Sequence record: OP352608
DNA from: Escherichia phage vB_EcoM_SP13
Reading direction: 5' to 3' (one strand)
Length of the DNA stretch: 64,000 nucleotides
Shown here: positions 1-59,739 of the stretch, piece by piece
Layout of the letters: the number at the start of each line of letters is the position of its first letter
Numbering within the stretch: position 1 is the stretch's first letter
Made by a program: the position numbers and the translations under genes
Notes under the pieces: generated by a model
The model's database searches: none
Told to the model about the DNA's origin: nothing
What the model saw: the letters and a program-made list of their open reading frames with translations, nothing else

Positions 1-131
1 ATTTTAAAAACATTTATATTAATTTTTTTCATATCCTCATACTTATGTTAATTTATATATTTAACGTATCATCCGTAAGATATAAGTAAAAACAAAGACT
101 TGCGGCAATACGGATGATACGTCATGATACG
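1..131. repeat. AT-rich tract (1-60) followed by a perfect 14-bp inverted repeat ACGTATCATCCGTA, built from the same ATCCGTATC unit as the iteron locus near 16.1 kb
   Basis: Read directly: 64-77 acgtatcatccgta and 109-122 tacggatgatacgt (exact reverse complement); 1-60 is strongly A+T rich. Confidence 0.6.
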
Positions 132-360
132 CTTCAACCAGCCAGCAGCGGCTAAGTCGTTGATTTGCATAACAAGCGGCAAAAGGGATGGATTTCTTTT
201 ATACGTATCAAACAGTACACCACGCACCACGGTCCGTTATCCATTCAGCAATATGATTTGTGTACGTTTATAGCCATAATGAACATCAATCTGCACTTGA
301 ATATAATGTCCATCCATTGTATAATTCACACTATTAATTTGCACTATGGGATTTTGCACT

Positions 361-834
361 ATGAGTCAAGATTATGTAGCGATGCCTGAAGACTTTGAAG
401 ACCCGCGATTCGCAGAGCACAATCAGGCTTTATTCGATGAGTTCATTGACCTTGTTATTCAGGGTCATGACATGCGCGCAGCTTTTGCACTAGTATTTGG
501 AATGGAAGTTGCAACGGATAACTACACTGGCCAGCGAATCCTTTGCACGCAACGCAATCCATACTACAAGATGCGCTTCAAAAAGCGTATGGAAGAGATG
601 CCACTCAAGGATTTGTGGAGCGTAAAAGGTGCAATTCACAATTTGGTTAAGCTTGTTCGTGATCCAGAAGTCGCGGCGTCAGCCAAGCTTAATGCTATTC
701 GTGAACTGAATATCATCTACGGCATCACGATGATTGATGAAAACGGCAATAGTAAAATGGGCCGTTCCATGGACGATTTCTACAAGGATTTTGGAGAGGC
801 GGCCAAAGAAGGTGAGCAATTCTCCCGCCACTAG
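361..834 (+). CDS. hypothetical protein (about 158 aa)
   Basis: ORF 346..834 trimmed to the ATG at 361; an AATTTGCACTAT box ends on the start codon; no recognisable motif. Confidence 0.6.
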   Translation: MSQDYVAMPEDFEDPRFAEHNQALFDEFIDLVIQGHDMRAAFALVFGMEVATDNYTGQRILCTQRNPYYKMRFKKRMEEMPLKDLWSVKGAIHNLVKLVRDPEVAASAKLNAIRELNIIYGITMIDENGNSKMGRSMDDFYKDFGEAAKEGEQFSRH

Positions 835-948
835 CCAATTTGCACTATAAAACGGCCCTAGAACACATTTTCTCCAATTCTAGGGCCATCGGTAATACGA
901 CGGGGAAGGTTACAAACATAAACGCGTTAGAAAGTGTATTATTATAAG

Positions 949-1212
949 TCATCTTTTAGTCACCTTACGTAACAATTTACGACCTTCAACCGTCCAATCG
1001 AACGACTCCACCAGCAGATTCGCACTATAACCTAAGACGATGCGTCCCTTCTCGTTATCGACCCGCCAACAAGTCTCGAATAGCATTCGATTTGCACTAT
1101 TAACTATTGCCGCAACTCGCGTAGGATAAGCGCAATTTGAACTATGGTCGTAAAGGGATAAGGTGCGACCACTTCCGATGGACAACGTAGCGATGAGAAT
1201 GAGCGTATTCAT
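949..1212 (-). CDS. hypothetical small protein (coding status uncertain)
   Basis: 87-aa ORF with GGTGG RBS, but three AATTTGCACTAT-type boxes lie inside it on the opposite strand. Confidence 0.3.
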   Translation of the reverse strand: MNTLILIATLSIGSGRTLSLYDHSSNCAYPTRVAAIVNSANRMLFETCWRVDNEKGRIVLGYSANLLVESFDWTVEGRKLLRKVTKR

Positions 1213-1262
1213 AAGCCACCAATTTGCACTATGAAAAGCGACCCCGAAGGGCCGCCATTCGA

Positions 1263-1889
1263 TTAGATAATCTGGAAGGTATAGGATTTGTTGCCGAACT
1301 CAAAGTTCAAGCGCCCAGCTTCCTTAAGCTTCATGCGGAAGCGAATGTGCTTGCTATCCGGCAAGCCCAGCACGGCGAACGCTACGCGGACCGATTTGAA
1401 CTCGCCTACACCCTCGACCATAACGCCGTTACGGGTGAGACGCTTTTGCGCCACTTCCTTATTATCCCAACTTTTTGCAATACCTTCGCTATTCGAACGG
1501 CGATGGGAAGGAGTTCCATTTTGCACTACGCAATTTGCACTATCGTTTAGACCGCTCTTAACGAAGGCTTCATACTCTTCGTCGGTCATCGCGTCGAGTT
1601 CTTCCTGGGTCGGCTCGGCCTTTTTAACGACCGCACGCGCCTTATGCGTTTTTACATCGCTGGACACTTCCTCGCGCGACTTCGCTTCGGGGATGGGCGA
1701 TTCGTTGGACGGCTCATCGAGCGCGTTTAAGGACTCGATTAACGCGATTACGCGAGTCTCGGCGGTACGGCGGTCCGCAAATTTCTTAATCGGCTTCGAA
1801 CCGGAATTTGCATTATAAAATGCAACGAGGTCGGCGGTCTTAGTTGCGATAACGTCGCCGCTAGTCGAGAAACGATTTAAGCTAACCAT
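1263..1889 (-). CDS. hypothetical protein (208 aa)
   Basis: ORF with AGGAG RBS 7 nt before the ATG; GC-richer codon usage than most of the window; overlapping plus-strand ORFs judged less likely. Confidence 0.55.
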   Translation of the reverse strand: MVSLNRFSTSGDVIATKTADLVAFYNANSGSKPIKKFADRRTAETRVIALIESLNALDEPSNESPIPEAKSREEVSSDVKTHKARAVVKKAEPTQEELDAMTDEEYEAFVKSGLNDSANCVVQNGTPSHRRSNSEGIAKSWDNKEVAQKRLTRNGVMVEGVGEFKSVRVAFAVLGLPDSKHIRFRMKLKEAGRLNFEFGNKSYTFQII

Positions 1890-1969
1890 AATGAACTCCT
1901 ATTTGTTAGGGCGCTAGGCGCGAAAGAATTTTATTAAAGCGCCGCGCACGACGCTCTAAAAATCCTCTC

Positions 1970-2254
1970 TTACGCTTCGACGAGGGAGAAGGTCTCAAAT
2001 TCTTCTTCGCCCATAACGAGTAAGATGTTACCGATTTCGACCGCTTCGAAGAAGTATCCGTTAACGTTTACTTCGAAGGCTTCGCGGTCCGATTCCGGTA
2101 ACGCCGCGTAAAGTTTAAAAGCCTCGGCGACCGTTACCCCACCCGCCTCGATGGTCTGGTCTACGTTCGCGGCGTAGACTTCGGATAAAATTTGTTTTAC
2201 GCCGTAGTTCTCGACGATAGCGTTACGGATGGAAGAAACGTTAAGAATAGCCAT
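1970..2254 (-). CDS. small protein, paralog of the 2889..3179 product
   Basis: AGGAG RBS; shares VY-x-NVD-x-IE and VN-x-NG-F-x-E-IG segments with the 2889..3179 protein; preceded by promoter cassette copy A. Confidence 0.7.
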   Translation of the reverse strand: MAILNVSSIRNAIVENYGVKQILSEVYAANVDQTIEAGGVTVAEAFKLYAALPESDREAFEVNVNGYFFEAVEIGNILLVMGEEEFETFSLVEA

Positions 2255-2322
2255 TTTAAACTCCTAGTTGGGAGAGGCGTTAACGACCTATTCGCTAACT
2301 CATCCCGTCCCGATATGAGTAC

Positions 2323-2350
2323 ATTATAATATAGTGTAGAAAAAAGTAAA
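2323..2350 (-). promoter_or_regulatory. sigma70-like promoter (cassette copy A) for gene 1970..2254
   Basis: On minus strand: -35 TTTACT, 16-nt spacer, -10 TATAAT, then the conserved leader ATATCGGGACGGGATGAGTTAGCGAATAGGTCG shared with copies B and C. Confidence 0.55.
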
Positions 2351-2394
2351 GCACTTTTTCGATAAAAATGCGATAAATTATTTTATCTTTTTTC

Positions 2395-2422
2395 TTTACT
2401 TCTTCGTACACTCGCGTATACT
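2395..2422 (+). promoter_or_regulatory. sigma70-like promoter (cassette copy B) for gene 2479..2781
   Basis: -35 TTTACT (2395-2400), 16-nt spacer containing GTACACT, -10 TATACT (2417-2422), followed by TTGTTTATATCGAGACGGG. Confidence 0.55.
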
Positions 2423-2478
2423 TGTTTATATCGAGACGGGCGATGGCCCTTCCTTCTACTAGCATCGGGAGCTTTATT

Positions 2479-2781
2479 ATGACTACTTTAATCTCTTCCA
2501 TCCTTACTTACGACGAAGACCGTTTAACCGTTCGCTCTCTTATCGCCGCCGTTAACGCCGAACTAGAATCTAGCGCCATTAAGGTCCGCGCGGTTGCCTT
2601 CGTCGGTCTTTCCTTCGACGATATCAAGTACGCCGAACGTAGCGCCATCCGCTTCGCGAAGACCGACGACGAAGCCGTTACCCTTATCGAGACGGTTACT
2701 CCGCGCGGCGAAACGTTAATTATCGTCGAGTATATCGACGTAGAAGGCGATAAGGCTTATAAATATTTTATCGCAAAATAA
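2479..2781 (+). CDS. hypothetical small protein (100 aa)
   Basis: ORF 2422..2781 trimmed to ATG 2479 with GGGAG RBS; no recognisable motif. Confidence 0.65.
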   Translation: MTTLISSILTYDEDRLTVRSLIAAVNAELESSAIKVRAVAFVGLSFDDIKYAERSAIRFAKTDDEAVTLIETVTPRGETLIIVEYIDVEGDKAYKYFIAK

Positions 2782-2792
2782 CGAAAAAGTGC

Positions 2793-2821
2793 TTTACTTC
2801 TTAGTACACTAAGACTATAAT
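2793..2821 (+). promoter_or_regulatory. sigma70-like promoter (cassette copy C) with structured leader for gene 2889..3179
   Basis: -35 TTTACT (2793-2798), 17-nt spacer containing GTACACT, -10 TATAAT (2816-2821); leader 2837-2869 GGGATGAGGTAGCGAATAGGTCGCTACCCTCCC can form a stem-loop. Confidence 0.6.
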
Positions 2822-2888
2822 GTTTTATATCGAGAGGGGATGAGGTAGCGAATAGGTCGCTACCCTCCCGACTAACTAGGAGAATATT

Positions 2889-3179
2889 ATGATCACTTTA
2901 TCCGCTATCCGTGCCGCTCGCGTCGAAACTTCCGAAAACTCTAACGTATTTGGCGAAACCTTAGAGAGCGTTTATCTCTCTAACGTTGACGCGATTATCG
3001 AGTCTATTTATGAGCCGATCAACTTCCTCGACCTTTACAAGTATCGCGATGAGGACATCGTGTCCTACCGCGTAACGATTAACGGCTTCGTTTATACGAT
3101 TACCGAAATCGGCGGCGAATATCTCGCTGTACCGCAACTCGGCGGCGAAGTAACTTACTTTAAAATCGTAAGCCTTTAA
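2889..3179 (+). CDS. small protein, paralog of the 1970..2254 product
   Basis: AGGAGA RBS; paralogy visible in the translation. Confidence 0.75.
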   Translation: MITLSAIRAARVETSENSNVFGETLESVYLSNVDAIIESIYEPINFLDLYKYRDEDIVSYRVTINGFVYTITEIGGEYLAVPQLGGEVTYFKIVSL

Positions 3180-3190
3180 GGAGAAGAAAA

Positions 3191-3400
3191 ATGATTAATA
3201 TGAATAACTCTCTTAACGCGCGCGCCCATCGCACCGCCGTCATCGATATGTTCCGTGAGCTTAAGGACTTATGCGATAATATGAACGCGATGTTATCCAT
3301 CGGCGGCTGGGGATACGAAGAAGAAGTTAAATATGCGGTTATGCGTCGCCGTCGCGATAACGTCCTTGGGCAAATTAAACGCGCCGGATTATTCCTTTAA
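3191..3400 (+). CDS. hypothetical small protein (69 aa)
   Basis: AAGGAGAAG RBS; followed by a terminator. Confidence 0.65.
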   Translation: MINMNNSLNARAHRTAVIDMFRELKDLCDNMNAMLSIGGWGYEEEVKYAVMRRRRDNVLGQIKRAGLFL

Positions 3401-3426
3401 TTATAATCAACCACCGTTACTAATAG

Positions 3427-3451
3427 GCCGCGCTTAGTCGCGGCTTTTCTT
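3427..3451 (+). terminator. rho-independent terminator
   Basis: GCCGCG-cttagt-CGCGGC hairpin followed by TTTTCTT. Confidence 0.7.
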
Positions 3452-3570
3452 CGTCCCTATCTCGGTGCGCTCCTACGCGAAAACTCCTTTATCCTTCCCT
3501 TCGTCGTCGCATAATCTTCGTCGATATGCGCCTTAGTTCGCATAACAGGTATTACGTTAAATGGAGAACA

Positions 3571-3832
3571 TCGCGTAAGTCCTTGTTTTATATAGACACC
3601 TATATCGGACCGTTAGGGCGGGTCGCGTAAGTCGTTGTTTTATAAAGGCGCAAAACTTTCCCTTCGTTCCGAACTAAAACGAGGAATATGCCGACCCTTC
3701 GTCCGAAAATAGTACGCATGCGAAATTACATGCATCTAGAATAATCCCCACAGATATTATCCTACACGCAATCATTCGCTTTCGAATCATTATGCTTCAT
3801 ATTATTATGCGTCGAATCATTCGCTTTCGAAT
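3571..3832. repeat. Direct repeats in a roughly 700-bp non-coding stretch
   Basis: TCGCGTAAGTC(C/G)TTGTTTTATA at 3571-3592 and 3623-3644; AATCATTCGCTTTCGAAT at 3770-3787 and 3815-3832; no convincing ORF or tRNA cloverleaf found by eye. Confidence 0.5.
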
Positions 3833-3909
3833 TGTAACGCTGGAAACTGTAACGGCGATTGATTATTGCGTTCGTGTGGTTTTTATGGCATGGGTCTTTT
3901 TGGTGCGTT

Positions 3910-3938
3910 TTGCTACTTGATGGAATTTGCGGTACACT
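3910..3938 (+). promoter_or_regulatory. promoter-like element (-35 TTGCTA, 17 nt, -10 TACACT)
   Basis: Hexamers and spacing read directly; contains AATTTGCGGTACACT, related to the AATTTGCACTAT boxes; points into a minus-strand gene block. Confidence 0.35.
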
Positions 3939-4006
3939 AATCAAAATACGACACATTTAGTCTACTAACTTTTCAAAGAAAAAGTCCTGGACAGTACCGT
4001 ACTATT

Positions 4007-4035
4007 TTGTACCCACAGGAAATTTGCAGTACACT
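4007..4035 (+). promoter_or_regulatory. promoter-like element (-35 TTGTAC, 17 nt, -10 TACACT)
   Basis: Read directly; contains AATTTGCAGTACACT; followed by a short GC hairpin CCTGC-gcgcg-GCAGG at 4036-4050. Confidence 0.35.
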
Positions 4036-4795: not shown

Positions 4796-5194
4796 TCAAT
4801 ATTTTAATAAGAAAGCACCCAACCAACTTTCCTCAACCTCGCGGCCAGTAGCCACACGGTCGGTCTTGGCTATGGGTCTGGATTCGCCGCAGGGCAACCC
4901 GTCTTGTAGTTGTGTACTATTGCCAATTCTCACCAGAACCTTTCCATCAGGGTCGATATAAGCGCGACAACCCATGATTTCGAGTCGTTGTAGACACTGG
5001 CGAATCGTTTTCAGCTTCTCACCGGACCGGATAGAGCGCGGTCGCGACCGCTGACCGTTCTTATTTACTGTACGCTTGAAGACCGGAATATCATTGGTGC
5101 GTTGCGGCTTGGGTCGGTAGTAGGCTTCTTCGCCAGGAGTCGCACCTGGCGTCAATTCGCGCTTGAGCGCCTTTTCAATATCAATGATCATAAT
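4796..5194 (-). CDS. hypothetical basic protein, possibly nucleic-acid binding
   Basis: ORF trimmed to MIIDIEK start, which overlaps the stop of the upstream peptide gene (TAATG); Arg/Lys-rich centre. Confidence 0.5.
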   Translation of the reverse strand: MMIIDIEKALKRELTPGATPGEEAYYRPKPQRTNDIPVFKRTVNKNGQRSRPRSIRSGEKLKTIRQCLQRLEIMGCRAYIDPDGKVLVRIGNSTQLQDGLPCGESRPIAKTDRVATGREVEESWLGAFLLKY

Positions 5195-5653: not shown

Positions 5654-7963
5654 TTATTTTGCTGATTTCAGCGCGGCTATCTCTGCCTTGAGTTCACCTA
5701 TCTGATCCATGAGTGCAAGAATAGCCTCGTGGTGCAATGCCGCTGCCACTCCGTAAGTGTCGACTGATTTGACATCCTTGACCACGGTCCCATCAGCCAG
5801 TTCCATATCACCTGAAACAGAAACGGCTTCTGGGAAATCAACCTCAACATCTTGAGCCACGAATCCAAAACCTACTTTCGCGCCGTCAGTTTTCAATCGC
5901 CATGACACGCCATTAATCCTTTTCATCTTGGTCAATGGGTCTTGAATCTTGACAATCTCATCCTTGATTCTGACGTCTGAAGAAGTACCCCAACCGCCAG
6001 CGCAAACAGCATTACCTGCTTGCAGGAATTGGAAATACTTGTTGGTGCCTACACCGCCAGCAGTAGTGGTCATTATGGTCACATCGCCATTACGCTCAGA
6101 ATATACCCGACCATACGTTGCTGTGTTGGCACTGTTCTTAAAATCGATGAACGATTGGTTGTTGGTGTTTCCAATGAACGTCGCTTGACCGCCGCGAGTT
6201 ATCAACTGGCCTTTTGCATCAACGTTCCCAGAGCTGGTGATCAAGTTATTTGGCACAAGCAAGTTGCCGTTGTCGACAAAATCGAATGCCTGGCTGGCGG
6301 CAGTCGTCAAATTGGTAACGGTCAATCGCATGTAATAAGCGCCACCGATAACAGCGCGAATGCGCATGCGACCTTCAGCCTCAACAGCAGTCCCCACTCG
6401 ATACTCCGACATGACGCTGCCGCCGTCAGCGGTCGTGCCTGGACCTGGCATTGCCGTATCGCCGTTTATAACAGACCATTGCGTATTCGCCGCTGTGAAT
6501 CCACCGGATGCACGAATCACCCAAACGCCTGAAAAGTTGCGCGGCAATACTTCATCTGTTGCAAGGTTGTTACGACCGTAAGCTGGGCTTGAGTTAGAAG
6601 CTCTTAGCGCAACGCTTCCCAAAGAGTTCGCACCAGAACTTAAAAGCGAAACACCTCTTACATATCGCGGAATGGTGAATCCTTCTCCATTGATGAATGC
6701 GCCGCCAGCACCTGCGACAACCGTTCCTGATGCTGGTTCACTTGCAGGGCCGGACCCGTGGAAGTTGATGTTGCCAGTGATGTTTGGCAGGAAGGATTCC
6801 ATTATCATTCCGTCATTTGACGAGTTGCCGCCATCGCCACGGGCAAAAAGTGCACGAACACTTCCTGTCTGAACGCCGTTACGGTCTGGAACACGGAATG
6901 TTGTTGTTCCGTTGCCTAAAGAATACTTTCCGCGCTTCAGCGGGTCAGCCAACCAATCTGCATCAGCAATAGGCGTAAGCATTTGCGCATAAGCCCAAAG
7001 CTCAGGCCAGTCTGCACGGTTAAGCAATTGTCCGTCGGCAACAACTTCATACGACTGAATATAGGCGCGACTGTCGCGCAGGTGAAAGTCACCAACGCCA
7101 TAGTTCATTACGCCGTTCATGCTTGGGCCAACGGTGCCAGTATTTACTAAGTTCTCAACCCAACGCTTCGTCGCGGCATCATAATCATTGACGGGGTCGC
7201 CAGCCAGTGGTGTTGAGCCTTGTGGACGAATATTCAACCATGCTTGCGCATTGTCTGCTGATCCTGTGCCGCCCATGGAAGTTGGAACGATGCTCTGATC
7301 AGCAACAGGGCCAAATCCAAAGGCATCTTTCATTCCCTGAATAGTCGTTTGACCTGTGCCGCCGTTTGCAATTGGAATTGTGCTTTGTGAACTATAAATT
7401 TGCGCCCAAGGCGACCATGAAGATGTTTCAGCATTGTACCTTCTTTGGTACAAGTTATTTGAGTTGAATGTGGTGTATCTTTGAATGCAACTTTCCAAAG
7501 ATATGGCAGTCTGCAGGACTTCCAATATCCCAGCTTCCAAGGCTACTGGATAGTTGAGGGATGTCTGCGCAGCAGCATTTGAATATTGGTAATATTGCCC
7601 AAACCAAGTTCCAGTCAAAGAGTTCAGATTTATCCCCGACGGCAAAAGTCCAAAATTCCTGACAGTATTGGTCAAAGATGCGGCAGTTGTTCGAATGGAA
7701 AGCATGTCGCCTGCCGCCCATGCGCGCGCTGCAGTTCCTTCCTGTGCACGCTGCACAGTCAGGACGTTCCCAACCACGGCTGTTACAGTGATGATTTCAA
7801 ATTGGAGGCCTGTTGCAGCGTCGACGATTGTCGCCACTACACGCTCGTTTGCACCCAAGGTCGGAAAGCCCGACCCTGAGCGGATTGTGATTGTGGTGTC
7901 TGAAGTCGTCGCTGGCTGAGCGAGCGCGACCTCAAAGTTGTTTTTGAATATTAGCCTTGGCAT
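5654..7963 (-). CDS. tail fibre/tailspike protein with C-terminal self-cleaving intramolecular chaperone domain (peptidase S74-like)
   Basis: N-terminal TITIRSGSGF...VTAVVGNVLTVQRAQEGT fibre-anchor-like segment; Gly/Ser/Thr-rich repetitive body; C-terminal GGWGTSSDVRIKDEI ... FGFVAQDVE ... LKAEIAALK pattern as in endosialidase-type chaperone domains; CGAGGA RBS. Confidence 0.75.
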   Translation of the reverse strand: MPRLIFKNNFEVALAQPATTSDTTITIRSGSGFPTLGANERVVATIVDAATGLQFEIITVTAVVGNVLTVQRAQEGTAARAWAAGDMLSIRTTAASLTNTVRNFGLLPSGINLNSLTGTWFGQYYQYSNAAAQTSLNYPVALEAGILEVLQTAISLESCIQRYTTFNSNNLYQRRYNAETSSWSPWAQIYSSQSTIPIANGGTGQTTIQGMKDAFGFGPVADQSIVPTSMGGTGSADNAQAWLNIRPQGSTPLAGDPVNDYDAATKRWVENLVNTGTVGPSMNGVMNYGVGDFHLRDSRAYIQSYEVVADGQLLNRADWPELWAYAQMLTPIADADWLADPLKRGKYSLGNGTTTFRVPDRNGVQTGSVRALFARGDGGNSSNDGMIMESFLPNITGNINFHGSGPASEPASGTVVAGAGGAFINGEGFTIPRYVRGVSLLSSGANSLGSVALRASNSSPAYGRNNLATDEVLPRNFSGVWVIRASGGFTAANTQWSVINGDTAMPGPGTTADGGSVMSEYRVGTAVEAEGRMRIRAVIGGAYYMRLTVTNLTTAASQAFDFVDNGNLLVPNNLITSSGNVDAKGQLITRGGQATFIGNTNNQSFIDFKNSANTATYGRVYSERNGDVTIMTTTAGGVGTNKYFQFLQAGNAVCAGGWGTSSDVRIKDEIVKIQDPLTKMKRINGVSWRLKTDGAKVGFGFVAQDVEVDFPEAVSVSGDMELADGTVVKDVKSVDTYGVAAALHHEAILALMDQIGELKAEIAALKSAK

Positions 7964-14893: not shown

Positions 14894-15814
14894 ATGACGA
14901 TACCAATCAACACATTCCCTCTATCTGGACAAACTCCAGTCTTGCCTGCGGTGTATGCTAATGGCTTGGCAATTGTCTCAGAATTCACTTCTGATAAAAA
15001 CTTGATTGTTCCACTGAGCCCGCCGCTTTCATCAGGGTATAACTCAGTAGGCCAGTTCTTTATGATTGGCAATGATGGCGATTCGACCAGCAAGCCTAAT
15101 CTGACATTGTCTGTACCTAAGATGAACATCACCGACGTTCAAACTGGCTTGACTGCATCAACAATCACCATTGCTTTTGGAGAAGCAGTGATTATAGGAA
15201 TGGAGTCTGGAGGGTCCAAGAATGCTGTCGCCGTTAAGGTAGTCAAATCCAGCGACAACCAATACACTTTACCAGCTGCGACGGCTTCCGTTCTCGGCGG
15301 CGTCAAAATAGGAAGCGGAATAAGCGTCGCAGGTGACGGTACAATTAGCGTAACTCAATACTCATTGCCGATTGCGTCAGCATCTACTTTAGGCGGCGTA
15401 AAGGTCGGTACAACTCTATCAATTGATGGTTCCGGTGTGCTTAACGCAGCAGCAAGCACCGTCCAGAATGCCACGAACAGTGTTAGCAATCCTCCAACCA
15501 CTTTGGTTAATCTGGCAACCTTAAACCTTCCTGCAGGAAAGTGGCTTGTGACGGCAAGCCAATTGACCGTTGCAACTGCAGGCATTCAAGCGAATACCGG
15601 AATCACTGTAAAATTATCAACAAGCAATTCAGATATTACGGATGATGCATTTACCATGTCAGCGGGTATTCGGGCTTCAGGACGTTTTGGCGGTAACGTC
15701 CCAACAAAAATGATTACTCTTGCCGCGCCTGGTAATGTGTATCTAAACTATCAGTGCACCGATGCGTTAACATCTACCGTTTACGGACAGATCACCGCAA
15801 TTAAGCTGAACTAA
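14894..15814 (+). CDS. virion protein with phage-fibre-type repeats (head fibre or decoration candidate)
   Basis: Two copies of LP-x-A-(S/T)-AS-x-LGGVK-(I/V)-G; Ser/Thr/Gly/Asn-rich composition; GAGGT RBS. Confidence 0.5.
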   Translation: MTIPINTFPLSGQTPVLPAVYANGLAIVSEFTSDKNLIVPLSPPLSSGYNSVGQFFMIGNDGDSTSKPNLTLSVPKMNITDVQTGLTASTITIAFGEAVIIGMESGGSKNAVAVKVVKSSDNQYTLPAATASVLGGVKIGSGISVAGDGTISVTQYSLPIASASTLGGVKVGTTLSIDGSGVLNAAASTVQNATNSVSNPPTTLVNLATLNLPAGKWLVTASQLTVATAGIQANTGITVKLSTSNSDITDDAFTMSAGIRASGRFGGNVPTKMITLAAPGNVYLNYQCTDALTSTVYGQITAIKLN

Positions 15815-15824
15815 AGAGGAAGTT

Positions 15825-15962
15825 ATGCAAAAGATTATTCAGTCACGTTATGTTAAAGTGCGAAATATTAATTGCAACTCTTTGCTTTCTTGGAAATGGG
15901 CTGTTTATGACTCGATGTTGATTGGCGTTTTAGTGGCAGGAGTGCTATTTAATATTCACTGA
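15825..15962 (+). CDS. 45-aa peptide with C-terminal hydrophobic helix
   Basis: Not in the ORF track (under 60 aa); strong AAGAGGA RBS 5 nt before the ATG; MLIGVLVAGVLF segment. Confidence 0.4.
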   Translation: MQKIIQSRYVKVRNINCNSLLSWKWAVYDSMLIGVLVAGVLFNIH

Positions 15963-16004
15963 ATTCATCGGCAAAGGATTGCCGCGAGTTTTATACGTAT
16001 AATG

Positions 16005-16270
16005 ACGTATCATCCGTATCAAGTAAGTTGTTGTTTTCAAAAGAATCTTACGGATGATACGGATGATACGCGTTGCCGCCGTACTATATAGGAATTCAAA
16101 TAAATTAATTTAAAATTATATATCTAATTTAATTTTATTTTTTTATAAACTCTTATATATATGAAAAGTATCCGTATCATCCGTATCATCCGTAGCACAC
16201 CAGTGATAGCGCGGCTTATACACCGATACGGATAAAAATACGCCTCATTTTATCCGTATCATCCGTATCA
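16005..16270. repeat. Iteron cluster (9-bp unit ATCCGTATC, direct and inverted) flanking an 85-bp AT-rich tract; candidate origin of replication or other protein-binding locus
   Basis: 16005-16020 direct; 16049-16072 inverted 2.5 units; 16081-16165 almost pure A+T; 16169-16194 direct 2.8 units; 16224-16233 inverted; 16251-16270 direct 2.2 units. Confidence 0.7.
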
Positions 16271-16385
16271 CACTAATAAAGGCGCGGCTATATCGGTTGT
16301 TATACATATTCAAACCATAATTATTGTTTGCCTAAGTTTTTTTCATTAGATATAATACACAATACTTATTTGAGGGTGGATGCGA

Positions 16386-17801
16386 ATGCAAACGGCACGC
16401 GAAATTGACAAAAATGGATTCTTGACGATTATGGGTTGTCCGATTTCGTCATTTGGCATTTTTGATTATTCTGCTGGTCAAGTTGGTCTTGATGGTGATC
16501 CGAATCGCATCGTAAAAGTCTATCGCCCTGAGTCAGCGGTGAAAGACCCCGAAGCGATAGATTCATTCAAAAATATCCCTTTCATCGACAATCACGAAAT
16601 GCTTTCTGGATTTGAAGGTGATGAGGATAACACAGCACCCGAAGAGTATGGCGTTGATGGCGTTCTGACTGGCAATGTTTATTATGACAAGCCATGGATG
16701 CGCGGCGACCTTAAAGTGTTTAGCCGTCGTCTGAAGAAGGCCATTGATTCTGGAAAGGTTGACTTGTCTTTGGGCTATGACTGTGAATTCATCATACAGT
16801 CTGGAGAGTTTGACGGGCAGCCGTATGAAGTGGTGCAGACAACTCTTCGCGGCAACCACATTGCTCTCGTGGACGTTGGTCGAGTACCAGGTGCACGGGT
16901 GCTGGATGGTCGTTGCTTTGACCATCTTTGTTTGACGACTGTAACACCATCCAACGAGGATTTAGACATGCCAAAACCGTTAAAAGGTAAAGCGCGTGAT
17001 AATGCTGTTGAACAGCTGAAATCACTGATCCCTGCGCTCGAACAATTTCTGAACGAAGAGAGTACTGAAGCTGCTCATCAGGACGAAGTTGAAGTGAAAG
17101 CAGAAGAGAAGGACTCAACCGAAAATCGTGAAGAAGTAATGGTTGATCCAGAAGTCAAGGCAGAAGCAGAAGAAACCCCAGAAGGTGAAGAGAAGTTTGA
17201 AGTTGAAACTGAATCTCACGCTGGCGGCGAACTTCCGCAATTGATCAGCCAAATCGAAGCACTTATTGCAAAACTGAAAGGTGGCGCGGTAGGTGATGAA
17301 GAAGAAGTTGAAGCCGAAGTCAAAGACGAAGAAGAAGTTGAAGTCAAGGCTGAAGATGTATCACCTTGCGACAAAGCTGAAGATGTGGTTAGCGGCCTGC
17401 AAAACAGCAACGTAAAGGGGGCTTCGGTCGAAAAAGATGACAAACCGACAAAAGCGGCGAAAGCGTCGCCAGGTCCAGCAAAAGGGGAACACTCAATGGC
17501 ATCTGATTCAGCAGTTGCTGCTTTCTACGCTGATTCTGCTCGTAAGAATAGCCTCTACCAGCGCCTGTCTAAAGTTGTTGGTGCCTTTGATCATGCAACT
17601 ATGGACTCCAAGTCCGTAGCGAAATATGGCGCTAAAAAGTTAGGCTTGAAGTGCGTTGATGGTGCTGAGTTTGACGTGGTGGATAATTATCTGCGCGGCG
17701 TTGAGCACGGTCAGAAACAGCGTGTAGTCGCAAAACAAAAGGCCGCTGCGGATTCTGCAGCAACTGACGAAGCATTTGAAGCTTGGTTGAAAGGGGAATA
17801 A
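16386..17801 (+). CDS. capsid scaffolding-like protein (N-terminal domain of unknown function plus acidic coiled-coil-like region)
   Basis: Position before the capsid gene; Glu/Lys/Ala-rich central third with EEVEVK-type repeats; start moved to ATG 16386 after GAGGGTGG. Confidence 0.5.
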   Translation: MQTAREIDKNGFLTIMGCPISSFGIFDYSAGQVGLDGDPNRIVKVYRPESAVKDPEAIDSFKNIPFIDNHEMLSGFEGDEDNTAPEEYGVDGVLTGNVYYDKPWMRGDLKVFSRRLKKAIDSGKVDLSLGYDCEFIIQSGEFDGQPYEVVQTTLRGNHIALVDVGRVPGARVLDGRCFDHLCLTTVTPSNEDLDMPKPLKGKARDNAVEQLKSLIPALEQFLNEESTEAAHQDEVEVKAEEKDSTENREEVMVDPEVKAEAEETPEGEEKFEVETESHAGGELPQLISQIEALIAKLKGGAVGDEEEVEAEVKDEEEVEVKAEDVSPCDKAEDVVSGLQNSNVKGASVEKDDKPTKAAKASPGPAKGEHSMASDSAVAAFYADSARKNSLYQRLSKVVGAFDHATMDSKSVAKYGAKKLGLKCVDGAEFDVVDNYLRGVEHGQKQRVVAKQKAAADSAATDEAFEAWLKGE

Positions 17802-55676: not shown

Positions 55677-56759
55677 ATGGCTAGTTTAAGAGAAGAAGCA
55701 AAAATAATTGAAGAGTTTTTAACAGAACTCCAGAGAGGCATCCCAGAAGATGAGCGCGTCATGACGGTGTTTGCTCCTGAAGCAACGGTGCAGACTGACG
55801 AGCGCGGAAAGAAGATTAACAGCAGCTTCTGGCCTAAGCCTTGGAAGTTGGGCAAGCCGCTCATGCAGCACCAAAACGGCTATGCTTGCATCAGTTCAAT
55901 GCGTAAGTCTCCCAACCCAAAGACGGGTGAGATGCGATACTGGCGTACAGAGTCGGCCTTTGGTCACGGTATGGCGATGATGGTCGACGACATCGGTCAC
56001 GGTAAAGGGTCCAAAGGCGATTTAGATTTGGAATTCTTTTTTGAGCGACTGAAGCCGACTGTCATCGTCGAGACTTCACCGAACAACCACCAGCTTTGGT
56101 ACTTCTTTAAAGAACCGATTGACCATCTTATTCAGTTCAAAGCGTTCCTTGGGTCTTTCGTTAACATGGTACTCAAGAAGGGCGGCGACAACACGATTAA
56201 AGACGTAACGCGCGTGGGCCGTGTTCCTGGGTGCATCAATAACAAGCGTGTGACTCACGACGGCCCCTATAAATATGTCGATGAGAACGGCGACCCGTTC
56301 CGCTGCCGACTTGTCCATGCAGACTACTCCTTGCGCTACACCATCGAAGACATTTGTCACGCATTTGGCTTTCACGTCGTCATGCCGCAAAAGCGTGAGA
56401 TTCAAATTGACGTCGATGAATACAAGTATGATGCCGTTTGGTATAAAATAGCCCAGCAGATTCTGGCGCGCAACAAGATGGGTGAAGGGTCTGATGGCGA
56501 CGTCATCGAGAATATGTCAGGCAAGTGCCGCATAATCTGTCCTTGGGGTGAAGAGCACACCAACGGCGACCCGTATGGCGCGTACTTTCGCGGCCCTATC
56601 CCTGGTGCAGAACATGAATTTGTGTTCGGTTGCGCCCACGACTGTCACCGGAAAGGGGAAGGCAAGAAAGGTTGGACTGCTTTTGTTGAAGCAATCGTCA
56701 TGCCTTATATTGAGAATCAACTTGACATGATAAATCGTCGTGCAGGTGGCATAAAATAG
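55677..56759 (+). CDS. DNA primase, archaeo-eukaryotic (AEP / prim-pol) type, with C-terminal zinc-binding region
   Basis: AMMVDDIGHG, ETSPNNHQLWYFF (S-x-x-H-x-W motif) and VGRVPGCINNK segments resemble AEP motifs I-III; C-terminal CPWGEEH ... CAHDCH. Confidence 0.6.
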   Translation: MASLREEAKIIEEFLTELQRGIPEDERVMTVFAPEATVQTDERGKKINSSFWPKPWKLGKPLMQHQNGYACISSMRKSPNPKTGEMRYWRTESAFGHGMAMMVDDIGHGKGSKGDLDLEFFFERLKPTVIVETSPNNHQLWYFFKEPIDHLIQFKAFLGSFVNMVLKKGGDNTIKDVTRVGRVPGCINNKRVTHDGPYKYVDENGDPFRCRLVHADYSLRYTIEDICHAFGFHVVMPQKREIQIDVDEYKYDAVWYKIAQQILARNKMGEGSDGDVIENMSGKCRIICPWGEEHTNGDPYGAYFRGPIPGAEHEFVFGCAHDCHRKGEGKKGWTAFVEAIVMPYIENQLDMINRRAGGIK

Positions 56760-58068: not shown

Positions 58069-59739
58069 ATGTCAATTAATAATGACAATCTTCCAGAGGA
58101 TACAGGTGATGAATTTGGTGCAATCTTTGACGAAATTCAAGATGCAGGCGTTTCGGAAGAAATGCAGGCAGCAGAGCAGCAAGGCACCAGAGCTAAAATC
58201 AGCCTTCAACATAAAGCCGTTGAAAAAGATTCAGAGCGCATGGAATGCTACGGTGAAGAAGACTTGGTTGAAAGAGCACGCTTGCTCGCCTCACTTCAGG
58301 TAATCAAGTTCCCTCACTACAAGCCGACCAAAGATGACTTCGTTCTACAGGCAGACCGGACGAGTGACATGAACCGTTATGCGGTTTTCGACGCGTTGTT
58401 TGATAAGGGAAGTGGCGTTGTTCCATTCCCTCACAAAGATACTTTTCGTGGGCGCTTAGTCGACCATCGCGGCGAAACATTCACCGACCGTACTTTGGAA
58501 GTCACAGAGATAGTTGCCGCTGTCGACGCAGCAGGATTGTCCAACCCAAACTCACGTCAGGTCGCTCAATCCTATAAGGAATGGGCCATGCGTTATCAGC
58601 GCGACGACCTGATGGACTTCTTCTACAAGAAGCTGCCTGAATGGGACGGTACTGCGCGCATCGAGAAATACCTTATCGAGCTATTCCGACCGTTCGATAC
58701 AGAGTTAAACCGACAAATCGGTGTGTATTTTTGGCTATCGCTCTACAACCGCCTGACCAACCCTGGCTGTCAAGCGCCAATTTCTATCGCGCTCATCGGC
58801 GGCCAGAACGCAGGGAAGAGTTATTTTAGCAAGCTGCTTTGCGAAGCTATTATGAACGACCGCCACGCAACACCGATTCCGTTGAACTTAGCCGCGCAAA
58901 ACTTCAACCCGTTCTTGCGAGCTATTACGGGTCGCTCAATTATCGCGAACGTTGGCGAGATGACAGGCTTTAAAAAGGCCGACATCGAAAACATGAAAGC
59001 ATTCCTGACTAAGACGGAAGATGACCTGGACTTCAAATTTGAAGATACGCAGGTTAAACCACGCCAGTGGATTGCGATAATGGACGGCAACGAATACGCA
59101 GGTATGCAGCGTGATGACACGGGCAACCGTCGTGTGTATCCTATCTTTGTTGGCCAACTCGCCGACAAGGACGGGCAACCGAACTGGTCGAAAGACTTCC
59201 AAGCTGACCTTTCCACTTTGAAAGAAGACGTTTGGCAATTGATGGCTGAGTGCGCTGCTTGGATGGAGAAGCACGGCGAAGCAGGTTACAACGCGTTTGT
59301 TGGTGAAACATCTCGCATGCTCACTGAGTTTAGTAAGAACGAAATGGAACGTGCACGCGGCGTTATTCGTGATGAGATGGTTGACAACGACCTTGTTGAA
59401 GTCGTCATTACCGCGCCTTATGACCGACATCACAGCGGACGCTGGCACATAACCAGTGGTGCTATTGCTATGGGATTCAGAGCGAAGTGCGGCAAGTCGC
59501 CTTTCTCTCGTACCCTTGCGCCGCACATGTCGAAGCTTGGTTTTGAGCCTGCAACCTATCGCAACCAGCGCGGTTACTTTACGCCGCTGATTAAGAATGA
59601 AGCAGGAGAATACATTTCTGATTTGATGACCATCTTAGCGTATCTTATCCGCGATGAGTCTGACCCTGAAGATATTGAATTCTTGAAGAAGGTTATTGAG
59701 CGTAAACGTTCTTTGGGAAGAGATAAGGATGAATTCTGA
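58069..59739 (+). CDS. P-loop NTPase, VirE/D5-like primase-associated helicase candidate
   Basis: Walker A IALIGGQNAGKSYFSKLL; strong AGGAGG RBS; synteny with the AEP primase. Confidence 0.55.
   Translation: MSINNDNLPEDTGDEFGAIFDEIQDAGVSEEMQAAEQQGTRAKISLQHKAVEKDSERMECYGEEDLVERARLLASLQVIKFPHYKPTKDDFVLQADRTSDMNRYAVFDALFDKGSGVVPFPHKDTFRGRLVDHRGETFTDRTLEVTEIVAAVDAAGLSNPNSRQVAQSYKEWAMRYQRDDLMDFFYKKLPEWDGTARIEKYLIELFRPFDTELNRQIGVYFWLSLYNRLTNPGCQAPISIALIGGQNAGKSYFSKLLCEAIMNDRHATPIPLNLAAQNFNPFLRAITGRSIIANVGEMTGFKKADIENMKAFLTKTEDDLDFKFEDTQVKPRQWIAIMDGNEYAGMQRDDTGNRRVYPIFVGQLADKDGQPNWSKDFQADLSTLKEDVWQLMAECAAWMEKHGEAGYNAFVGETSRMLTEFSKNEMERARGVIRDEMVDNDLVEVVITAPYDRHHSGRWHITSGAIAMGFRAKCGKSPFSRTLAPHMSKLGFEPATYRNQRGYFTPLIKNEAGEYISDLMTILAYLIRDESDPEDIEFLKKVIERKRSLGRDKDEF

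Follow-up and report, generated by a model that had tools for sequence, protein, structure and literature searches.

The first base of the 64,000-nucleotide stretch of Escherichia phage vB_EcoM_SP13 analysed here (hereafter the window) is the left boundary of a direct terminal repeat, and falls within a bipartite element of oppositely oriented iterons and AT-rich DNA which, as judged from shared sequence blocks, has a paralogue 16 kb further into the genome. We read the two loci as origin-type iteron/AT-rich elements, of which the terS-proximal copy would double as the terminase cut site, and give this interpretation about an even chance of being correct. The window belongs to Wifcevirus, as 28 phage records match it at 90–100% identity. 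Wifcevirus phages are virulent myoviruses of E. coli and Shigella, and are kin of the PB1-like phages.

The records of four independent Wifcevirus phages (Mansfield, WFC, WFH and ECP_WGS_SA1) start at exactly the base with which the window starts. The Mansfield record carries an annotated direct terminal repeat of 3,673 bp (1–3673) predicted with PhageTerm, and the Mansfield paper states that the genome was opened at the PhageTerm repeat boundary, while in WFC the repeat is present at both ends of the record (3,784 bp, right copy beginning at 68,689); Korf et al. give a length of about 3.7 kb for the Wifcevirus repeat, and overall the repeat is approximately 3.7–4.0 kb. Together, the shared record starts, the Mansfield PhageTerm repeat and the WFC repeat at both ends place the left physical end of the virion DNA at the window edge, which bears out one of two options raised by an earlier sequence-only reading of the window, namely that its start was close to a genome end or terminal repeat. 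This terminus evidence was taken from public records and papers and not from analysed reads, and with identical sequence at both virion ends and a defined boundary the region can be classed as a direct terminal repeat. The right boundary falls in a zone at 3888–3981, with the Mansfield boundary (3,673 in its own record) at the homologous position of about 3899 and that of WFC at 3981, and this discrepancy of approximately 82 bp makes the precision of the right end uncertain: either the end itself is imprecise, or it was called differently in the Mansfield and WFC studies. There were no iterons at this right boundary (3888–3981). It is bracketed (taking position 3981 by homology with WFC) by two copies of GGAA(A)TTTGCrGTACACT at 3922–3938 and 4018–4035, which both have AATTTGC in common with the TTGCACTAT motif discussed below and may be part of a right-end signal, and the non-coding part of the terminal repeat also contains a direct repeat, GCGTAAGTCnTTGTTTTATA, at 3573–3592 and 3625–3644.

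The sequence-only reading had described a perfect 14-bp inverted repeat near the window start, preceded by an AT-rich tract and using the same repeat unit as a locus at 16 kb, and all of this was recovered. The sequence ACGTATCATCCGTA is present without mismatches at 64–77 (+ strand) and 109–122 (− strand), and the inverted repeat does not extend past 14 bp. When up to two mismatches are allowed there are nine matches in the window versus 0.23 expected (0/100 shuffles reached nine), with the remaining seven all located within 15637–16267, and the motif scan found none between 123 and 15636. Similarly, the 9-mer TATCATCCG has eight copies in the window versus about 0.5 expected, all confined to the junction and 16-kb loci. 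The junction repeat is real and far above chance. Its right arm runs on as a second degenerate unit (TACGGATGA-TACGTCATGA-TACG, 109–131), and an additional CGTATCA is found at 204–210, as part of an isolated degenerate iteron (ACGTATCAA, 203–211, + strand). Bases 1–63 have an AT content of 88.9% versus 53.8% for the window as a whole, and 63-nt windows with at least this AT content start only at 1–2 and 16080–16111, so that the AT level of the window start is matched elsewhere only at 16080–16173. Two features of an iteron-type origin are seen in the sequence of these putative elements: clusters of iterons, with at least five units in the junction element when its upstream half is counted and at least nine in the 16-kb copy, and in both cases an adjoining AT-rich spacer that could act as the unwinding region.

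As the sequence-only reading had noted, the window edge hides the full element, and the window holds only its right half. The missing half was obtained from F13, a permuted assembly which is 100% identical to window positions 1–2889 and shows the concatemer sequence preceding base 1. This upstream sequence, which had been proposed as a check, is not ordinary coding DNA; it is non-coding and contains further motif copies in the opposite orientation (TACGGATGATACGGAT, TTATCCGTATCA and TACGTCATGATACGTCATG). The complete element is approximately 270 bp long, non-coding, and straddles the left boundary of the terminal repeat, with an iteron (+), approximately 35 nt and an iteron (−) on the left, a 114-nt spacer of approximately 89% AT in the middle, and an iteron (+), 31 nt and an iteron (−) on the right, the last of these pairs being the repeat seen at 64–122. 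At its core is a 27-nt inverted repeat with arms that are 85% complementary and 114 nt apart (5924–5950 and 6065–6091 in the F13 locus, L002), and the genome end (6000/6001 in L002) lies only 7 nt from the centre of the AT-rich spacer. In window coordinates, the right half of the spacer extends from 1 to 63, with position 1 being the left physical end, and is followed by the inner right iteron ACGTATCATCCGTA (64–77, + strand), which is within the 27-nt right arm of the large inverted repeat (65–91), by the 31-nt spacer of the right iteron pair (78–108) with a GC box, TTGCGGCAA, at 100–108, and by the outer right iterons TACGGATGATACG and TCATGATACG, two units in the opposite orientation (109–131, − strand). 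The cut lies in AATTAACTCC|ATTTTAAAAAC, the left part of which is upstream of the window, and the surrounding AATTAACTCC|ATTTTrAAAAC is unchanged in all junction copies, including that of a metagenomic relative in which the helicase is only 75% identical and the iterons have drifted to CGTATCAy. As single-stranded DNA each iteron pair could form a strong hairpin (z = −3.6 to −6.1), with a 14-bp hairpin for 55–131 (z = −4.6).

In roughly half of the Wifcevirus phages, homology to F13 sets in precisely at the left inner arm (approximately 5934–5938 in L002, some 65 bp ahead of base 1), which indicates that the element is conserved and its left flank mosaic, and Mansfield, with a different left flank, retains TACGGATGATACGGATGATACG at the left inner arm. 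To the right, two overlapping σ70-like promoters (280–325, + strand; 6280–6325 in L002), which are consensus matches only, with 10 of 12 positions matching in each, precede the gene for the small terminase subunit TerS (361–834, + strand). The latter assignment is based on the Mansfield annotation and on homology to the E217 TerS decamer (PDB 7UXE, E = 7e-34; the entry has 10 identical chains), and the TerS relatives in IMG/VR are all from close Wifcevirus phages. Rfam covariance models gave no match at the gathering threshold in the 14.9-kb F13 locus spanning the whole junction element, and we therefore rejected a known structured RNA. DnaA boxes were also rejected, since the nearest form, TTATCCGTA (for example at approximately 16248–16256, and at approximately 5887 in L002), deviates at positions 7–8 from the 9-mer consensus TTATCCACA.

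The second locus is situated between a small ORF and the gene for the head-maturation protease (16380–17801, based on the Bas99 annotation), with a σ70-like promoter (TTGCCT-17-TATAAT, 16328–16356, + strand) in front of the latter. It consists of outer left iterons (ACGTATCATCCGTATCAA, 16005–16022, + strand), a 22-nt inner left array (TACGGATGATACGGATGATACG, 16049–16070, − strand) which is 100% complementary to 16173–16194, a GC box and AT-rich spacer (16071–16171) with 102 nt between the arms, an inner right array of tandem 9-bp units (CCGTATCATCCGTATCATCCGTA, 16172–16194, + strand), and outer right iterons in both orientations (TACGGATAAAAATACG on the − strand and CCGTATCATCCGTATCAC on the + strand, 16227–16271). 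Collinear blocks common to the junction and 16-kb elements (TCTTACGGATGATACGGAT, TATA, AATTAA, a T-run, CGTATyATCCGTA and GATACGGAT) identify the 16-kb locus as a paralogue of the junction element, and as paralogous arrays of one motif the two loci are most simply read as two candidate binding arrays for one protein, in line with the other option of the sequence-only reading. While the iterons are common to both copies, the cut-site sequence AATTAACTCC|ATTTT is found in the junction copies and is absent from the 16-kb copy, the spacer of which lacks AACTCC, and this would explain why only one of the copies is cut. The 16-kb element is 95.8–100% identical in 28/28 Wifcevirus records, placing it among the best-conserved non-coding DNA of the genus, although it is annotated in only one of the 28, where a hypothetical protein underlies it. 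A search of the phage collection with this element matched the 28 Wifcevirus records only, and there was no similarity to plasmids in PLSDB, based on which plasmid iterons were rejected.

The two-locus system is not confined to Wifcevirus. Pbunavirus and Myosmarvirus encode TerS homologues (41% and 36% identity, respectively), and the genes for these also have a long non-coding region upstream. Pbunavirus PB1 has the two-locus layout with a GGTAATTTGG-type motif: its terS-upstream and protease-upstream regions are 73% identical to each other, and in both of them inverted CCTACTGCCGC/GCGGCAGTAGG boxes and tandem GGTAATTTGG units lie on either side of an AT island. Serratia phage Spe5P4 (Myosmarvirus) has two paralogous loci with an AAGTAA-type motif, AAAGTAAnAAGTAACCCAATATA. 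In all three genera one element is directly upstream of terS, and in PB1 and Spe5P4 this copy is also directly 3' of the VapE-like helicase gene. The motifs differ between the genera and agree within each genome, at the same two syntenic positions, so that the system must be old, and such a change of motif with lineage is the pattern to be expected if the site co-evolves with a binding protein encoded by the phage. Not all lineages have it: in a fourth one, that of Xylella phage MATE2, the region upstream of terS has no AT island and no paralogy, and lacks the element. It is very improbable that both copies are left over from a small mobile or recombination-prone repeat element bounded by terminal inverted repeats, or resemble each other by chance, and have no present function. 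The element does have dyad symmetry and aligns to itself in reverse, and the mosaic breakpoint between Wifcevirus subgroups is exactly at its left edge, but occupation of the same two syntenic positions in three genera by motifs that differ between genera and match within a genome, a motif count far above chance and the strong conservation of the 16-kb copy all speak against such a remnant.

In Wifcevirus, PB1 and Spe5P4 alike, the iteron arrays are bordered by GC boxes (TTGCCGCG/GCGGCAA/GCGCGGCT) in inverted GCCGC/GCGGC orientation, while the iterons themselves differ; the boxes are located at 100–108, 16073–16080, 16209–16216 and 16282–16289 in the window, at 1805–1815 and 1990–2000 in the PB1 locus L012, and in the Spe5P4 locus L017, and may be the site of a conserved enzyme, for example primase or terminase. 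In addition, L017 contains downstream of terS (1827–1945) three copies of AAAATAAGCATGCTTTGTA, with the palindrome AAGCATGCTT inside, which are 63 and 29 bp apart.

With regard to the packaging start, 36 of 161 long reads of Pbunavirus JG024 start at 59,376, for which Ipoutcha et al. proposed a pac site (PMC10913387). This position maps to ...GCGAAAAT|CGATTGC... in the AT island upstream of terS, and is base 1 of the Pa193 record; the SCUT-S1 record starts at a position different from the predicted pac site and adds no terminus datum. By homology, the terS-proximal copy marks the packaging start both in the headful Pbunavirus and in the terminal-repeat Wifcevirus phages. A virion end or packaging start inside the site, and the small-terminase gene adjoining it (terS starts at 361), are two of the features of a pac or cos site.

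The other candidate partners of the iterons are the replication proteins. The window encodes a VapE-like (SF3-type) helicase of 556 aa (58069–59739, + strand; PF05272, E = 1.6e-28), whose C-terminus was confidently assigned a winged-helix fold in fold searches and which is a candidate iteron-binding initiator, and a RepB'-type, RSF1010-like primase (55677–56759, + strand; PF16793, E = 4e-36), which is candidate origin machinery. We scanned IMG/VR for exact 16-mer matches with TACGGATGATACGGAT, and this returned the Wifcevirus loci plus three unrelated GC-rich viral contigs (L024, L045 and L040) with clusters of the core. The ATCCGTA-core iterons are at 5136–5414 in L024, 10461–10744 in L045 and 3377–3460 in L040. 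The layout in L024 and L045 is lambdoid-type: the array directly follows a Prim-Pol plus VapE-like gene, and an HNH-like ORF and a P27-type TerS (both by-eye readings of translations) come 2.3 kb later. The array architecture is that of Wifcevirus, with GTTACrGATGwTACGGAT (−), a spacer of approximately 100 nt and ATCATCCGTATCA (+). The L040 array directly adjoins the 3' end of a Prim-Pol plus D5_N plus Pox_D5 gene of the P4-alpha type. The VapE-like helicase is the only protein that L024 and L045 have in common with the window, while L040 shares none, and profile alignment extends the helicase homology across the C-terminal winged helix (hhalign, probability 99.35%; ...SPADGRRLATVMGTLGF versus ...SPFSRTLAPHMSKLGF). 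The helicase–iteron link is a co-occurrence in two independent contig families, and the presence of ATCCGTA-core iterons next to primase-helicase genes suggests a horizontally shared helicase-origin module.

Several results count against an origin role or qualify it. A control scan with the PB1 motif GGTAATTTGGTAATTTGG found palindromic arrays in structural modules of unrelated contigs, and not next to replication genes, showing that association with a helicase is not general for any such motif; in these GC-rich phages from IMG/VR the arrays of 8-bp units, (GGTAATTT)n/(AAATTACC)n, are located between structural genes (L053, 10095–10200; L058, 3500–3600). These control arrays, the absence of the element upstream of terS in MATE2, and the published GC-skew minima of Pbunavirus, which are in replication genes away from both loci (PMC12390725) and are confounded by gene orientation, all weigh against reading the loci as origins. 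It is also awkward for a model of one domain and one motif that the helicase C-terminal domain in L040 is Pox_D5 and yet the iteron is the same, and the Wifcevirus element stays with terS, approximately 8 kb from the helicase gene. Comparison of the recognition helices in the helicase C-termini of five lineages gave an uninformative MAFFT alignment, and fold searches with the helicase C-terminus did not recover the P4 alpha origin-binding domain.

The main rival explanation, which we consider rather unlikely, is that the iterons are recognition sites for TerS, in the form of an E217-type ring, and that the junction is a pac/cos-like site at which the arrays on either side of the cut position TerL. 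In phage P1 pac, hexamer repeats lie on both sides of the cut, and SPP1 has pacL-pacC-pacR next to its terS gene; here too the repeats flank a central cut, the site is next to terS and packaging goes through terS, and in Pbunavirus the homologous site has been reported to be where headful packaging from a pac site starts. Unlike P1 and SPP1, which have permuted headful ends, Wifcevirus virions have a direct terminal repeat of approximately 3.7–4.0 kb, the phage motif is duplicated at a second locus, and TerS binding is putative. This explanation accounts for a genome end at the spacer centre between the arrays, for an element that is directly upstream of terS in three genera and in Wifcevirus stays with terS and not with the helicase gene, and for the reported packaging start at the homologous JG024 site; moreover, the protein is homologous to the decameric TerS of E217, and the tandem unit of 8–9 bp is, as a rough estimate, near the DNA length expected per ring subunit. 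What it does not account for is the conserved internal copy, which would be an uncut TerS locus with, for example, a regulatory or architectural role: it is hard to see what a second complete recognition site, located 16 kb into the genome and retained in three genera, would do, and no terminus has been reported at this position. Neither does it account for the helicase-linked arrays elsewhere, since the contigs with iterons next to primase-helicase genes have a TerS of a seemingly different family (P27-type, 2.3 kb away in L024, assigned by eye) and only the VapE-like helicase in common with the phage. Finally, another repeat around terS, TTGCACTA, with eight copies on the + strand only (339–1542), could equally be the TerS array.

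This TTGCACTA repeat is present in eight exact copies (six for TTGCACTAT) at 338–1543 (also at 1808), always on the + strand whatever the orientation of the genes. Within the terminal repeat the copies are confined to 1.2 kb; the start codon of terS is overlapped by two or three of them, and the array is conserved in a divergent relative (L061, 15100–15220). The array could serve as a cosB-like binding site for TerS, or be a phage-specific promoter motif.

An alternative that we regard as improbable casts the arrays as operators at which a phage transcription factor would switch the σ70-like promoters of two late operons (terS, and protease-scaffold-capsid), with the AT tracts being promoter or UP-element DNA and the terminus being there for unrelated reasons. 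Both elements do lie between a terminator-like hairpin and a σ70-like promoter facing late genes, and Garbe et al. (2010, PMC3008698) predicted a σ70 promoter in the AT island of the JG024 protease-upstream locus, and further described AT-rich boxes as well as intergenic motifs that are conserved and whose function is unclear. There are however only two such sites, with none at the other late operons (terL, portal, tail), and the iterons flank a spacer of approximately 100 nt at distances of 58–200 bp from the promoter hexamers, which is unusual for an operator. Regulation of late promoters also leaves unexplained why these arrays are found after primase-helicase genes in contigs unrelated to the phage, and why terminus and spacer centre coincide in two genera.

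We favour origin-type iterons flanking an unwinding spacer because of the combination of architecture, duplication, lineage-specific motifs and recurrent association with SF3-type primase-helicases, while the terminus data make the terS-proximal copy also the site of the terminase left end. A close parallel is satellite phage P4, in which ori and crr are served by the alpha protein, consisting of a primase, an SF3 helicase and a C-terminal origin-binding winged helix. As in P4 ori and crr, short direct and inverted iterons are found at two separate loci of one genome which also encodes an SF3-type helicase with a C-terminal winged helix, and in L040 and L024 the primase-helicase gene has the iterons directly adjoining it, an arrangement typical of P4-like replicons. 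In contrast to P4, the phage primase is a separate protein of the RepB' type and the helicase domain is VapE-like and not D5/alpha, the loci are 16 kb and not 4.5 kb apart, and one of them is also the genome end; the P4 alpha origin-binding domain was not recovered in the fold searches, and iteron binding in the phage is putative. Two origins bound by one protein are also known from SPP1 (oriL and oriR). In the IncQ plasmid RSF1010, oriV combines iterons and an AT-rich segment with the oppositely oriented ssiA and ssiB hairpins, which are primed by RepB'. The phage similarly has a RepB'-family primase and an element composed of iterons, an AT-rich tract and oppositely placed hairpin-forming repeats; unlike RSF1010, no RepC-type initiator was found in the phage, the iterons are 9 bp versus 20 bp, and there is no plasmid sequence similarity. 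An ssi function of the phage hairpins would be pure conjecture.

In the proposed mechanism, the CGTATCAT(CCG) repeats would be iterons for one phage-encoded protein, for which we infer the C-terminal winged helix of the VapE-like SF3 helicase, acting with the RepB'-type primase, to be the likeliest binder. Binding of this protein to the arrays in their opposite orientations would open the AT-rich spacer, so that replication could start at both loci as origin-type elements. At the terS-adjacent copy, cutting would depend on the element, with terminase cleaving inside the opened spacer at AATTAACTCC|ATTTT, after which packaging would proceed rightwards through terS and the left end of the terminal repeat would be created. 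At the T7 concatemer junction the terminal repeat is accompanied by repeat arrays, and processing requires a secondary origin/promoter (phiOR) close by. In the Wifcevirus concatemer, the origin-like element is likewise found at the left boundary of the repeat or immediately to the left of it, a position from which initiation could be coupled to repeat duplication. The two differ in that the T7 repeat is only 160 bp and the T7 origins are RNA polymerase promoters, whereas the phage has an iteron/AT-rich element, a repeat of approximately 3.7–4.0 kb and no RNA polymerase of its own.

Parts of this picture have been published before, namely the Wifcevirus terminal repeat, the putative AT-rich pac site of Pbunavirus and the 'AT-rich boxes' in intergenic regions of PB1-like phages. 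In the searchable literature we did not find the bipartite iteron element with the genome end at its centre, its protease-upstream paralogue, the conserved occurrence of the pair in three genera, each with its own motif, or the link with VapE-type helicases. Published statements on the genome ends of Pbunavirus are mutually contradictory (PMC12390725).

More broadly, and only tentatively, PB1-like myoviruses (Wifcevirus, Pbunavirus and Myosmarvirus) may possess a conserved pair of iteron/AT-rich origins read by a VapE-like helicase, where the melted terS-proximal spacer would be the cutting site of the terminase. This would physically couple initiation, repeat duplication and packaging start at one element, and the shift from headful packaging (Pbunavirus) to a fixed repeat of 3.7–4 kb (Wifcevirus) would have taken place on the same site. 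Wifcevirus phages are poorly studied and have been reported to be very fast replicators, and the related Pbunavirus includes some of the most widely used therapeutic Pseudomonas phages. An element which marks the packaging start, and probably the origins, offers a target for end-aware assembly, rebooting and engineering, a basis for prediction of transduction risk, and a direct test of the coupling between origin firing and terminase cutting.
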